The translations under genes and the position numbers were made by a program. 52,177 nt of DNA from a virus (Duplodnaviria > Heunggongvirae > Uroviricota > Caudoviricetes): the IMG/VR virus record IMGVR_UViG_2563366958_000018. One strand, written 5' to 3'. Positions 12,840-47,600 of the stretch are shown here, piece after piece. Positions within the stretch are counted from its first letter, which is position 1, and the number at the start of each line of letters is the position of its first letter. Below the pieces are notes generated by a model. The model was not told where the DNA came from. It worked only from the letters and a program-made list of their open reading frames with translations, and did no database searches.

Positions 12840-13180
12840 GCTGTAGTGAGAATCCATGCGATTACGAGCAGTATTCAGATATTCAGAGCGGGTAATGAAG
12901 CACATACAACCGAAAACATGGCAGAAACTGGACTCTATGGGAGCTAAGTTGGAGAAGATTACTCAACTTAAGCAGTGGCATATCGGCGAATATTATGGAA
13001 GTCCTGGTCGGGATGTTCGGTTGGTAAAAAGTTGAACATTGTTTTTTTATTGATCGATTAACCACGATATGAAGGTTTTTTTATGGAAAAACCTTGTTTT
13101 AGATGGTAACTGGGTGTAGTGTTTCATTTAACGTAGTAAAACTGCGTTAAGCGATTACCGCGTAATTTGTTGCTTTATGA

Positions 13181-13211
13181 AGCCCTGCCTTTTTCGGCGG
13201 GGCTTTTTTTT
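13181..13211 (+). terminator. Rho-independent terminator immediately upstream of the lysis cassette
   Basis: AGCCCTGCC-TTTTTC-GGCGGGGCT stem then a run of eight T. Confidence 0.5.
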
Positions 13212-13224
13212 AACGAGGATTTCA

Positions 13225-13620
13225 ATGTCAGCAGAACCAATTTCCGGTACGGCCGTTGCTGCTGGTGGCCTGATGGGTGCCAGCGTTTTTGGTATTGCAA
13301 CTGGTATTGATTACGGCGTTGTATTCGGGGCATTTGCTGGCGCTGTTTTCTATGTTGCTACAGCGGTGAATATTAGCCGTCTCAAGCTGATTGGCTATTT
13401 CTTTACATCGTTCATTGTTGGAGTGATTGGAGCGCCGTTAGTTGGCTCATTTCTTGCCAAATGGACCAGCTACAACGATCGACCTCTTGATGCGCTTGGT
13501 GCGGTTATTGTGGCTGCATTGACAATTAAAATCCTCACGTTCGTAAACAGCCAGGATCTCGGTAGCATCTTTGGAATGCTTTCCCGCTTACGTGGAGGGG
13601 GTTCAAATGGTAAGCAGTGA
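13225..13620 (+). CDS. Putative holin (multi-pass membrane protein)
   Basis: Gly/Ala-rich hydrophobic helices; first gene of the lysis cassette; RBS GAGGA. Confidence 0.5.
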   Translation: MSAEPISGTAVAAGGLMGASVFGIATGIDYGVVFGAFAGAVFYVATAVNISRLKLIGYFFTSFIVGVIGAPLVGSFLAKWTSYNDRPLDALGAVIVAALTIKILTFVNSQDLGSIFGMLSRLRGGGSNGKQ

Positions 13621-43127: not shown

Positions 43128-43446
43128 AATTTAGTGATGAATGTTGAATCATCAGGAATATCATGCAATACCAATGCATGAGCACCTATTGTGACATTGT
43201 TTCCTATACGCACTTTGCCACCAAGAATGGTGGCATTACAACCAATGGTCACATTATGCCCTATAACAATATCCATATCATTAAATTCCCCGCGAAGTCC
43301 AATAGTTACTCCGGGCTTAATTGAACAATTTTCACCGATTGTTACTTTGTGACCGATAACAACACTGTTGAGATAAGAAATATCAAAGCCTTTCCCTATA
43401 TTTACAGTTAAAGGGACTGTTACATTATATTTATCAAGAATGAAAC
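43091..43446 (-). pseudogene. 3' portion of a hexapeptide-repeat (LbH) acetyltransferase gene interrupted by the Tn3 remnant
   Basis: Frame encodes repeated [LIV]-G-x-x-x-x hexapeptides (VIGHKVTIGENCSI, IVIGHNVTIGCNATILGGKVRIGNNVTIGAHALV); reading frame joins in-frame with 45016-45222 when the insertion and one TTCTA copy are removed. Confidence 0.6.
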
Positions 43447-43451
43447 GTTCT

Positions 43452-43489
43452 AGGGGTCTGACGCTCAGTGGAACGAAAACTCACGTTAA
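43452..43489. repeat. Tn3 38-bp terminal inverted repeat (bla-proximal end)
   Basis: GGGGTCTGACGCTCAGTGGAACGAAAACTCACGTTAAG. Confidence 0.9.
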
Positions 43490-43599
43490 GGGATTTTGGT
43501 CATGAGATTATCAAAAAGGATCTTCACCTAGATCCTTTTAAATTAAAAATGAAGTTTTAAATCAATCTAAAGTATATATGAGTAAACTTGGTCTGACAG

Positions 43600-44472
<873 letters not shown>

Positions 44473-44642
44473 TCAATATTATTGAAGCATTTATCAGGGT
44501 TATTGTCTCATGAGCGGATACATATTTGAATGTATTTAGAAAAATAAACAAATAGGGGTTCCGCGCACATTTCCCCGAAAAGTGCCACCTGACGTCTAAG
44601 AAACCATTATTATCATGACATTAACCTATAAAAATAGGCGTA

Positions 44643-45222
<580 letters not shown>

Positions 45223-45637
45223 AAGATAATCATGTGACCAATTATTGTAATAATTTTAATGGTATGTTTCTACTGGCTATCCAGCGTGTCTGATATCCAG
45301 TAACAAATCGTCAACACGGGTGCAATCAAATAGTGAGTGTTAAGACTGACCACTTATTACCAGGTATGAGTGGCCAGCATTAAATCAGAACAGCCCTTTA
45401 ACTGAACTGGCCGCGCTGTTAAGGGATGATGTCACCTTATCTTTGAAGCCGGACAGCATATTGCTGAACGATGAGTTTACCGCAGGTTTCTGGCTGGGAA
45501 TCATTGACTGGAGTTAGGCCAGTAGTATGATGCTCGCAAAACGAGATCCAATTTAGATCCTTTTACTGGTGGATTATCGTTCGATCAGTGAGAGACTTCG
45601 TGCATGACCGAAAGTGTTGTGGTAGAGTTCTCTTAAA

Positions 45638-45652
45638 ACCACGTAACGTGGT
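45638..45652. promoter_or_regulatory. CI-type operator palindrome (ACCAC-GTAAC-GTGGT) in the repA promoter region
   Basis: Perfect match to the ACCAC-N5-GTGGT consensus (extended AACCAC/GTGGTT), about 40 bp upstream of the repA leader, overlapping a TATGAT -10 candidate. Confidence 0.4.
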
Positions 45653-45688
45653 TATGATTGTGGGTGTCTGGTTGGAAAGTGACCAGAT

Positions 45689-46669
45689 ATGGAAACAAAA
45701 AGCCCGCAGATAAATCTGCGGGCTTCTTGCGACATCCACGGAAAACCAACAACAACAATCCATGGGCGCCTCGACAACTCCCATTATACGTTGGTTTTCC
45801 GTGGACGCAAGAGCGAACATATGGATAGACCAATGCCGTCTCTACGTTCAGCTTACGTTTGTAATTTGTCGCCGGAGTTCCAGCCTCCAAAGCACCATAC
45901 GCACAAGCTGCCGCTGGTGTTATCTGATGCTTTACAGCGCATTAATGGGCGTGATCTTACGTGTGAGGTTGCGTTCTACGTTAATCAACCGTCAGAGCGG
46001 AAGCGCCGGATAAACGAGCATCGTCGTCGGGCGATTAATGCTGTGATCGCTGCGATTTTGCACCATGTAAACATCATTTCTAAGCGGGTTCTGGCTAGTG
46101 CTGAGGCGTTGGCTGATTTTTGCGGCCTGTCTACCGTATCCGAAGCTGGGAACAAGTCTATAACGCGCTGTACAAGGGCGTTGTCGCAACTGAAAGCGTT
46201 AGGTTTTATTGATTATGAACGTCGCTGGGATCGGGTGAATAAACAGTATTGGCCAGCGAAAATAGAGATTCGTGATCAACTGCTGGAAACCGTTGGTATT
46301 ACTGAACAAGCATGGAGACGTGCGGTTAGCCAGAAACTTAATTACTTCAATGCGAAGAATAGCGAACGGCTTAAAAAAGCGATAACGGAGGCTGATTATA
46401 AGCGTATTGTTATTCAGGAGCAGATGGAGAATGTATGGCGTCAGAGGAAGACGGCCAGAGAGATAAAGGCAAAACAGAAAGCAGCGGAGAGAGCTGCGCG
46501 TCTTGTTCGGGAAAAGGGAGAGGCCGAACTTCGTCATCAAATCACCAGAGAGGTTAGTCAGGAATTTGCTGATGGCATGTATCCTGGTGCTGACCTTGCA
46601 TATTTACGATCCCTCGTTGAGCAGCGTTATAACAGGTTAAGAAAGACCTGGAAATCACTCCAACATTAA
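45689..46669 (+). CDS. repA: Plasmid replication initiator RepA (IncFII RepA1 / I-complex RepZ family)
   Basis: Conserved RRRAINAVIAAILHH and CGLSTVSEAGNKSITRCTRALSQLKALGFIDY blocks align with IncFII RepA1 as recalled; likely true start at ATG 45821 (282 aa), with 45689-45820 being leader. Confidence 0.85.
   Translation: METKSPQINLRASCDIHGKPTTTIHGRLDNSHYTLVFRGRKSEHMDRPMPSLRSAYVCNLSPEFQPPKHHTHKLPLVLSDALQRINGRDLTCEVAFYVNQPSERKRRINEHRRRAINAVIAAILHHVNIISKRVLASAEALADFCGLSTVSEAGNKSITRCTRALSQLKALGFIDYERRWDRVNKQYWPAKIEIRDQLLETVGITEQAWRRAVSQKLNYFNAKNSERLKKAITEADYKRIVIQEQMENVWRQRKTAREIKAKQKAAERAARLVREKGEAELRHQITREVSQEFADGMYPGADLAYLRSLVEQRYNRLRKTWKSLQH
45699..45810 (+). promoter_or_regulatory. repA leader with two strong hairpins (candidate antisense-RNA target / translational control region)
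   Basis: AGCCCGCAG-ATAAAT-CTGCGGGCT (45701-45723) and CCACGGAAAACCAAC...GTTGGTTTTCCGTGG (15-bp stem, 45736-45804). Confidence 0.35.
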
Positions 46670-47300
46670 CCCACCTGAATGATGAATCCGGTTTTACCGG
46701 AGGATTATCTACGTCGCAATAAAATATCTGTTCAAAAAACAATCTAAATTAATTTTCTCTAAACCTGAACACAGCAAAAATATCGCCTTTACAGGCATCG
46801 GCTAATAAAGTTATCCACAGTTCTGATATGTATATGCAAATGGTTTTTTATAATAGATGCACTAAACAAATAAATGCAAAATCACTTTCTTTTATTAAGA
46901 CTTTCTTTATTTAACTTACGCAGGCTTTGCCTGTGAATATGTTCGCCCTTGCAGCGAGCTAAAGCTCGCGCCGGTTCGAGTCGCTACGCTCAAATATACC
47001 TCCTCCGGCACTTGCCGGAGGCATGGAGCAGCCTGATCATCCTTTTCGAAACGGCACGTTTCGAACTATACAAAATCAATTTATATAAGGCCGAAATAAG
47101 GCCTACGGCCGGGCTTTGCAGGAGGAAGGGGCGAGCCTTATCAATAAACGTCGATAAATACGCACACAGTAGCCATCAGAACGCGATAAAATGTAAGAAA
47201 CATCATTTCCTATTAGACATAGAAAACTTGTCTTATACGCAATGTAGTAAATTTCTATTGCCACATAGGAAAAGATTTCCTACCATCGTAGATATAATAA
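46670..47300. other. Probable replication origin region downstream of repA (AT-rich, DnaA box)
   Basis: TTATCCACA at 46811-46819; AT-rich tracts and GC-rich hairpins (for example CGAAACGGCACGTTTCG). Confidence 0.4.
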
Positions 47301-47312
47301 ATGGAGATGGTT

Positions 47313-47600
47313 ATGGATAAAGATACTGTTTTAAAAATGTTGAATCCGGCTTGTTTAAAAAAAGCGGATGAATGGGAATCTCCTACATGTGGAGAAGTTC
47401 GGGCAGTCATTGGCCTGACCGGAATGAGCGGCTCGCAGTTAGCCAAAAAACTAGGCTTAAAAGATAGTCGCAATGTTCGCAACTGGCAGATGTTAAAGGA
47501 GTCCACATCCAGATCCAGCATTCCGTATGCAGCCTGGGCGCTGCTGTGTTACTTCGCTGGGTTAGGGTTAATCTTCATTGATAACAAAACAGATGTTTGA
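47313..47600 (+). CDS. Hypothetical HTH-like protein (95 aa)
   Basis: GGAG RBS; segment GEVRAVIGLTGMSGSQLAKKLGL resembles an HTH. Confidence 0.4.
   Translation: MDKDTVLKMLNPACLKKADEWESPTCGEVRAVIGLTGMSGSQLAKKLGLKDSRNVRNWQMLKESTSRSSIPYAAWALLCYFAGLGLIFIDNKTDV

Follow-up and report, generated by a model that had tools for sequence, protein, structure and literature searches.

An antisense RNA predicted within the repA leader of an enterobacterial phage-plasmid, and a proposed exchange of hairpin arms at the RepA start

In the IncFII plasmids R1 and R100, whose control system comprises CopA, CopT, tap and CopB, a two-stem-loop antisense RNA of ~85-90 nucleotides (nt) is encoded in the repA leader. 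Its recognition loop (CGCCAA) lies in a long terminator-proximal stem-loop, loop variation defines incompatibility variants, and the perfect CopA-CopT duplex is a substrate of RNase III. For the I-complex, our references were IncI-alpha ColIb-P9 (Inc RNA/repY/repZ), IncB pMU720 (RNAI/repB/repA), IncL/M and the Rfam models RF01089 and RF01087. In staphylococcal pSK41 (RNAI), and in pT181 and pIP501, antisense-induced refolding occludes the rep translation start or forms a terminator. Here we analysed the repA leader in a 52,177-nt stretch of tailed-phage DNA (IMG/VR record IMGVR_UViG_2563366958_000018; the window), whose RepA belongs to the same Pfam family, PF02387, as the initiators of IncFII and of the I-complex. 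A first-pass annotation of the bare sequence had proposed that the 44 in-frame codons at 45689-45820, ahead of the likely RepA start, form a non-coding leader under antisense control of the IncFII/I-complex kind, and comparison with relatives supports this through a conserved promoter, a terminator and a covarying stem-loop. We think it very likely that an antisense copy-control RNA is encoded in this leader, and we favour, with rather less assurance, the fuller account in which the leader is untranslated and the minus-strand RNA limits RepA through an exchange of hairpin arms.

Relatives were gathered by protein look-ups and by a DNA scan with a 21-nt motif, and the comparison set holds 30 distinct leaders: 19 in group 1, the window included, and 11 in group 2, whose RepA proteins are ~60% identical to that of the window. 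A protein-pattern scan of genome contigs returned no relatives, and four Actinomycetota matches in the motif scan, which had only the 21-mer in common, were discarded as chance. The elements of the predicted antisense RNA and the mRNA hairpin that overlaps them are as follows.

45783-45810, minus strand: predicted antisense promoter, with a -35 element TTGCGT (45810 to 45805), a 16-nt spacer and a -10 element TATAAT (45788 to 45783).
45776 to ~45693, minus strand: predicted antisense (counter-transcript) RNA of ~83 nt, made up of a single-stranded 5′ tail, stem-loop I (SL-I), a spacer and stem-loop II (SL-II), the terminator.
45731-45770, minus strand: antisense SL-I, GGCG.CCCAUGGA ... UCCGUGG.AUGUC, with 98.2% of cells paired.
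45691-45725, minus strand: hairpin 1 with its U-tail, a predicted intrinsic terminator (SL-II), stem 45700-45709 / 45716-45725.
45751-45759, either strand: hypervariable segment, which is the 5′ part of the hairpin 2 loop and the apical loop of antisense SL-I.
45735-45750 and 45790-45805, plus strand: arms of hairpin 2 of the mRNA, 16 nt each and 100% complementary, with 39 nt between them in a repeat search.

The minus strand of 45690-45830 folds at -68 kcal/mol, compared with -37.3 ± 3.4 kcal/mol for dinucleotide shuffles (z -9.0; 0 of 200 as good), and the plus-strand leader at 45538-45850 has a fold z of -6.8, with none of 100 shuffles as good. These values, a repeat search and covariation confirm the two strong hairpins that had been noticed within 45689-45820. 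The second, described as a 15-bp stem with a 39-nt loop at 45736-45804, was recovered with arms of 16 nt; the first, placed at 45701-45723, is present with its end one base further on, its G+C core AGCCCGCAG (45701-45709) pairing with CTGCGGGCT (45716-45724) inside inverted-repeat arms at 45696-45711 and 45714-45729. Across the group 1 leaders, hairpin 1, a 6-bp extension and hairpin 2 together have 98.5% of cells paired, both sides are changed in four pairs (17 cells), and the covariation score was reached by none of 500 shuffles. In hairpin 1 an A-U pair is replaced by G-C in 4 of the 19 leaders, while hairpin 2 has compensatory changes from CCACGG/CCGTGG to CCACAG/CTGTGG and CCACCGG/CCGGTGG. 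Both hairpins stand at the same positions in group 2 with entirely different stem sequences. Long perfect inverted repeats that overlap a promoter-like element might also act as DNA, for example as an operator through which RepA regulates itself or as part of an origin, and not as RNA structures at all. We regard this as extremely improbable, given arms that change freely with pairing kept, G-U-type pairs included, and that are entirely different in group 2, a 39-nt spacing atypical of an operator, and a DnaA box downstream of repA, at the place expected for an IncFII-type origin.

Hairpin 1 is followed by a U-rich run, UUUUUGUUU, on the minus strand only, and the terminator tail UUUGUUUCC is the complement of 45699-45691. 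Read on the minus strand, the hairpin was matched by two Rfam models, Thr_leader and CsrC, in their terminator hairpins, and the group 2 terminator stem has another sequence and the same shape. The opposite orientation has something to recommend it too, since hairpin 1 is G+C-rich and followed by UUCUU on the plus strand, where a weak Thr_leader-like match (21.5 bits, E 0.54) was also found, so that it could serve as a plus-strand terminator modulated by the antisense RNA in a transcription attenuation of the pT181/pIP501 kind. The plus-strand U tract is short, though, being interrupted in group 1 and reading UCUGCGG in group 2, the hairpin lies upstream and not downstream of the variable recognition region, and no competing anti-terminator structure is conserved. 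Attenuation of this sort is accordingly an account in which we place very little belief.

The predicted antisense promoter is conserved as TATAAT/TTGCGT, invariant in the 19 group 1 leaders, and as TATAAT/TTGCAT in the 11 group 2 leaders; its spacer is the 3′ arm of hairpin 2 and its -10 element lies in the hairpin 2 loop. The earlier description of the two hairpins would thus be refined, with hairpin 1 a candidate terminator of the antisense RNA and the 3′ arm of hairpin 2 the candidate spacer of its promoter. The RNA would start ~7 nt past the -10 element. Between promoter and terminator, from whose geometry we infer the ends of the RNA, the two-stem-loop antisense fold is common to 30 of 30 distinct relatives. 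One pair of SL-I occurs as GC, GU, AU and UG, and the SL-I covariation score was reached by none of 500 shuffles. SL-I also contains three invariant G-U pairs that are A-C mismatches on the plus strand; these pairs, which form on the minus strand only, argue that the minus-strand RNA is the selected molecule.

Nowhere is the locus more variable than in the SL-I apical loop. E. coli-type leaders that are otherwise near-identical when aligned differ at 45751-45759 by substitutions and by net changes of -3, -1 and +2 nt, a pattern that would be expected for diversifying selection on incompatibility specificity. Most differences in L008, L044, L047, L048, L050, L053 and L055, small indels included, fall in the 9-12 nt that make up this loop. 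The predicted molecule is a small, structured RNA with stem-loops supported by covariation, and it is complementary to the rep leader along its whole length. Two upstream segments, 45656-45667 and 45615-45623, are 83-89% complementary to the variable loop segment 45749-45760; this pairing was taken as chance, there being no covariation in L002, the sole relative checked, by eye.

The sense-strand elements around the RepA start are these.

45504-45531, plus strand: promoter-like site for the repA mRNA, TTGACT-16-TATGAT, with 10 of 12 consensus matches.
45538-45820, plus strand: predicted repA leader, untranslated and highly structured, its start taken to lie near 45538.
45689-45820, plus strand: 44 in-frame codons, a putatively accidental open frame whose ATG is absent or out of frame in relatives.
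45821-45823, plus strand: the ATG nearest hairpin 2 on its 3′ side, in the repA frame, with AAGAG (45809-45813) 7 nt upstream.
45833-46669, plus strand: repA core open reading frame (ORF) of the IncFII_repA family, 278 amino acids (aa) from M49; PF02387.

As first reported, the frame that begins at ATG 45689 is open, and it runs without interruption to the end of repA at 46669 (326 aa); a simple account of the locus is that RepA is translated as this 326-aa protein, with the hairpins incidental or serving only to slow translation. The 981-nt ORF is annotated by the Prokaryotic Genome Annotation Pipeline (PGAP) and in the phage record, a weak GGAAAG lies 8 nt upstream of ATG 45689, and the ATG is in frame in 6 of the 10 other E. 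coli-type variants examined. The comparison with relatives speaks against it. ATG 45689 is missing from all Salmonella, Klebsiella and metagenome relatives, with CAGCATCA in its place in the Salmonella relatives (DNA 74-76% identical); in four E. coli-type variants (L008, L047, L048 and L050) its equivalent and repA are in different frames, and in L016 the first ATG is preceded, at 3 nt, by an in-frame stop. Indels of 1, 2 and 7 nt fall within 45689-45820 among the relatives, those of 2 and 7 nt in the Salmonella sequences lying within the hairpin 2 loop. Conservation of the segment is at the nucleotide level, with changes that are compensatory and not codon-like. At the protein level, Pfam IncFII_repA matches residues 53-319 only (E 1.3e-43), the alignment of 10 homologous proteins begins at M49 (45833), the homologues from outside the E. 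coli cluster that align from there being 274-284 aa long, and no homologue has the extension. Homology had been placed from about 45821 by the first-pass annotation, which was right to leave the 45689 leader outside it and put the start slightly too early. Among 27 homologous protein clusters, 23 have lengths of 274-296 aa, three are partial, and the 326-aa form occurs only in the E. coli cluster; ATG 45833 alone keeps the repA frame in all of the relatives. Judged by these comparisons, the 45689-45820 extension is non-coding, and translation from ATG 45689 is hardly credible. The 326-aa RepA of the PGAP and Yersinia phage records, for which the Salmonella relatives are annotated with 277 aa, appears to be a systematic over-extension; RefSeq WP_224158527.1, whose 90%-identity cluster has 525 member sequences, has, most probably, 44-48 residues too many at its N terminus.

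Upstream of this segment, the promoter-like TTGACT and TAT(G/C)AT are retained in Salmonella, Klebsiella and metagenome relatives, and three additional hairpins are conserved within 45538-45690. Conserved hairpins of the leader include AACCACG-TAA-CGTGGTT at 45637-45653 and one at 45669-45687 with compensatory changes. Just 3′ of the predicted repA transcription start, two GATC (Dam) sites at 45545-45548 and 45556-45559 make up the stems of one small hairpin; both sites are kept in most relatives examined, the second being GCTC in L016, and the GATC hairpin may tie repA expression to methylation or SeqA.

We next compared the locus with the catalogued control systems. Within 44900-47400, on either strand, neither CopA nor the I-complex pseudoknot models (PK-repBA and PK-repZ) gave a match at E<=10, and none of the three matched L003 or L020. 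The CopA model (RF00042) served as a positive control, scoring 99.9 bits in the true IncFII/FIC replicon L061, and PK-repBA was found in the Klebsiella plasmid L060 (56.7 bits), whose RepA is 37% identical to that of the window. PK-repBA was also found, at 49.3 bits against a gathering score of 45, at 1360-1505 of L015 (RepA 63% identical). This relative shows the complete I-complex arrangement: a UUGGCG loop, its CCGCCA pseudoknot partner and a leader ORF of 15 aa with a UGA that overlaps the GUG of repA. Its ATTATA -10 element is that of the window, and its terminator base is similar. A canonical I-complex-type leader at this level of RepA identity indicates that closely related initiators probably use different control architectures. 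In the window, neither CGCCAA nor TTGGCG occurs in 45690-45820, bearing out the earlier remark that a UUGGCG-type loop is not evident; the hairpin 2 loop has GGGCGCC, for which no conserved complementary partner near the start was seen by eye in groups 1 and 2. Two candidate pseudoknot partners were rejected as not conserved: GGCG in the Shine-Dalgarno (SD) region, found in the L011 type only, and UUGUCG/GGAGUU at 45856-69, found in the E. coli type only. No CopB-type gene is annotated in relatives between the acetyltransferase/invertase gene and repA, where small ORFs were not profile-searched, whereas the true IncFII replicon shows one upstream.

A separate tap-like leader peptide is likewise missing from the window, as had been noted, since the first ATG with an SD before it (45821) belongs to the repA frame. 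That statement does not extend to the relatives, in several of which the equivalent of 45821 opens an ORF that is out of frame with repA or upstream of it. The ORF that begins at the first ATG differs between lineages as follows.

Window and L016: in frame with repA.
L002 and L003: 46 aa, out of frame.
L011, L022 and L023: 13 aa, out of frame.
Group 2 L017, L019, L026, L031 and L056: 158-162 aa, the stop overlapping the repA ATG (ATGA).
Group 2 L021: 63 aa, the stop just past the repA ATG.
Group 2 L020: 33 aa, the stop overlapping the repA ATG (ATGA).
Group 2 L028, L029, L032 and L041: directly a 274-aa Rep.

These differences suggest that the family alternates between a coupled upstream ORF and a fusion of that ORF to rep, with the window as a fused case. 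The L017 ORF lies at ~1016-1504, and its 162-aa product, which has a weak IncFII_repA match, could be a degenerate duplicated Rep domain. Two other leader-peptide candidates were set aside: an ORF from loop ATG 45762, which is kept in group 1 and absent in group 2, has no SD and varies between 32 and 83 aa, and a frame-1 ORF at 45658-45828, whose TAG lies over ATG 45821, crosses the indel-rich loop and has neither ATG nor SD.

Such ORFs are what the classical IncFII/I-complex mechanism would lead one to look for, in which the antisense RNA sterically blocks the ribosome-binding site of an adjoining leader peptide to which repA is coupled, with or without a pseudoknot. RepA is a PF02387 protein, relatives have ORFs of 13, 33, 63 and 158-162 aa from the regulated ATG with stops overlapping the repA start, and L015 has the whole arrangement. 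In the window, however, the regulated ATG shares the repA frame, the ~30 nt next to the predicted antisense 5′ end (45776) hold neither an SD nor a start codon (in true IncFII the tap ATG is 18 nt away), the CopA, PK-repBA and PK-repZ models are unmatched, the UUGGCG loop is missing, and no conserved pseudoknot partner was seen by inspection. We therefore consider it unlikely that the classical mechanism operates here.

The likeness to the I-complex is nevertheless considerable. Besides the shared Pfam family, the window has a predicted antisense promoter inside the rep leader, its -10 element placed as in the I-complex-type L015, together with a distal terminator hairpin whose stem base, AAACAAA(A)AGCCC(C)G ... 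CGGG(G)CU, is similar; control is predicted to act at the level of translation; and a regulated ORF upstream of rep in relatives has a stop that overlaps the rep start. It differs in having no Rfam match, no UUGGCG/CGCCAA loop and no pseudoknot partner that we could find, in carrying the recognition loop in a separate stem-loop and not in the terminator hairpin, in an extra mRNA hairpin of 15-16 bp that holds the antisense promoter in its loop and 3′ arm, in an antisense target that ends 45 nt before the start codon, and in a leader ORF that is fused to repA. With IncFII the locus shares a two-stem-loop antisense RNA of similar size in the repA leader, the initiator family and a loop sequence that varies between close relatives, and it differs in that the recognition loop of CopA is in the long terminator-proximal stem-loop, the CopA 5′ end is 18 nt from the tap ATG as against 45 nt here, and no copB-like gene is annotated upstream. 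Taken together, the circuit probably works like, and descends from, the I-complex/IncFII type, and is best described as a putative derived variant outside the catalogued RNA families, as had been suspected. Its origin could be pictured as an I-complex circuit (RNAI, stem-loop I, leader peptide and pseudoknot) that would have lost the UUGGCG loop and the pseudoknot, and whose short ORF would have become fused to repA.

How the antisense RNA would act from this distance is suggested by two further elements of the mRNA.

45724-45731, plus strand: UUCUUGCG, complementary to CGCAAGAG at 45806-45813, which holds the SD-like AAGAG.
45789-45835, plus strand: predicted alternative hairpin H3, in which 45789-45803 pairs with 45820-45835 and covers both ATG 45821 and ATG 45833.

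The UUCUUGCG/CGCAAGAG helix is paired in the minimum-free-energy fold of every group 1 leader, and the helix 62-67 / 148-153 on A2 is 100% paired and nearly invariant. In the mechanism that we propose, hairpin 2 (15-16 bp) would form in the mRNA alone, and its large loop, complementary to the antisense 5′ tail and SL-I loop, would display the antisense target. The antisense RNA would nucleate at this loop and next invade the 5′ arm of hairpin 2, which lies inside its target, so that it would compete with the 3′ arm for the 5′ arm. The 3′ arm (45789-45803), once set free, would re-pair with 45820-45835 and bury both candidate RepA start codons; a higher plasmid copy number would then mean more antisense RNA and less RepA. 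In its predicted effect, an antisense RNA that binds upstream and triggers a distant alternative hairpin burying the start region, this resembles pSK41, pT181 and pIP501, from which it differs in that the Rep proteins and hosts are unrelated and the mechanism here is purely a prediction from thermodynamics and comparison.

When the antisense target is masked, the freed 3′ arm folds onto the translation start region in every relative. The H3 pairings in the window are 45798-45803 with 45820-45825 (ATG 45821) and 45789-45797 with 45827-45835 (ATG 45833), and the folding free energy of H3 is -16 to -21 kcal/mol in group 1 (z -1.8 to -3.7) and -20 to -27 kcal/mol in group 2. In five lineages with differing start regions, the duplex between arm and start region is better than that with a shuffled start region (p 0.003-0.055). 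Masking lowers the predicted unpaired probability of the window AUG 45833 from 0.90 to 0.04, the group 1 mean for the segment from the first to the second AUG from 0.57 to 0.22, and that of the group 2 SD from 0.50 to 0.17. SD accessibility was tried as the read-out of the switch and dropped as ambiguous in group 1, start-codon accessibility giving a consistent signal.

Several results weigh against this account. The promoter motif by itself is not significant, occurring once in the window against 0.75 expected by chance, so that the promoter call rests on conservation and geometry; its -35 element agrees with TTGACA at 3 of 6 positions, and a generic promoter scan missed it. Within the 11 group 2 leaders the helices are invariant. 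In group 1 the SD-like AAGAG, paired with UUCUUGCG in the free mRNA, loosens on masking (unpaired probability 0.13 to 0.49), and if the SD were the only guide one would take the antisense RNA for an activator; the arm-exchange model depends on start-codon burial. Cognate pairs of arm and start region are no better than non-cognate ones (not diagonal-dominant), and the alternative hairpin is accordingly backed by recurrence and not by clean compensation. Finally, 45 nt separate the antisense 5′ end from the first start codon downstream of it, a gap to which the direct steric block of IncFII and the I-complex is not applicable, and the replacement proposed here is a prediction. For arm exchange as the specific mechanism we would put the chances slightly below even.

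The main effect of the antisense RNA might instead be to expose the duplexed leader to RNase III cleavage and decay, or to interfere through convergent transcription. RNase III would be expected to cut a perfect duplex of 83 bp, the antisense and repA promoters face each other, and the mixed change in accessibility in group 1 is in keeping with either effect. What such a mechanism leaves unexplained is the complementarity between the 3′ arm and the start region in five lineages with differing start-region sequences, and the covariation of hairpin 2; we judge it improbable as the main mode of action and retain the untranslated leader with antisense-driven arm exchange as the favoured account.

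It is possible, though we hold it tentatively, that these leaders represent a distinct and uncatalogued class of replication riboregulator in enterobacterial phage-plasmids, marked by a promoter set in a hairpin, strand displacement and an I-complex origin. If so, an antisense promoter would be built into a regulatory mRNA hairpin, with its -10 element in the loop and its spacer formed by the 3′ arm, and strand displacement would free an arm directed against the start codon without blocking a ribosome site or a pseudoknot. The class would have arisen from an I-complex circuit, switching repeatedly between a coupled ORF (13 to 162 aa) and fusion to rep, and the hypervariable recognition loop might double as a superinfection or incompatibility barrier among co-circulating phage-plasmids. 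The leader lies outside every Rfam family and would document how an I-complex circuit can be rebuilt, and its hypervariable loop could be used to type these plasmids and to predict which of them are incompatible. We found no description of the leader in the literature, where a 2026 preprint on phage-plasmid-mediated blaTEM-1 heteroresistance in E. coli, with 41 occurrences of repA and 11 of copA, may already name an antisense element of this plasmid or a related one.

The host element of the window is a phage-plasmid of ~48 kb that carries blaTEM-1. The replicon drives a family of such ~48-kb phage-plasmids that is common in E. coli, with near-identical non-mobilizable plasmids in 60-70 E. coli records, where tail-fibre genes adjoin repA; E. 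coli phage-plasmids with this repA replicon include that of ATCC 25922 (NZ_CP009073), whose leader, at about 12880-13280, is 99.5% identical to that described here, and the RepA of three isolated Yersinia myophages is 99.6% identical to that of the window. A pSLy3-like label for the phage-plasmid was dropped, as the literature places pSLy3 in the SSU5 supergroup. In the window the replicon adjoins the acquired blaTEM-1, and the copy-control element would be an obvious target for copy-up mutations that raise resistance. The resistance gene (43600-44460, minus strand) and a truncated tnpR (44643-44975) lie in a 1.55-kb fragment at 43446-45016 that interrupts an acetyltransferase (LbetaH) gene and ends near 45016, ~0.5 kb upstream of the repA promoter; the junction of this fragment had no match in PLSDB or in RefSeq complete E. 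coli genomes. On the other side of the gene, a consensus DnaA box, TTATCCACA, lies at 46811-46819 in an A+T-rich stretch, ~140 nt past the end of repA and at the place where one would look for an IncFII-type oriR.

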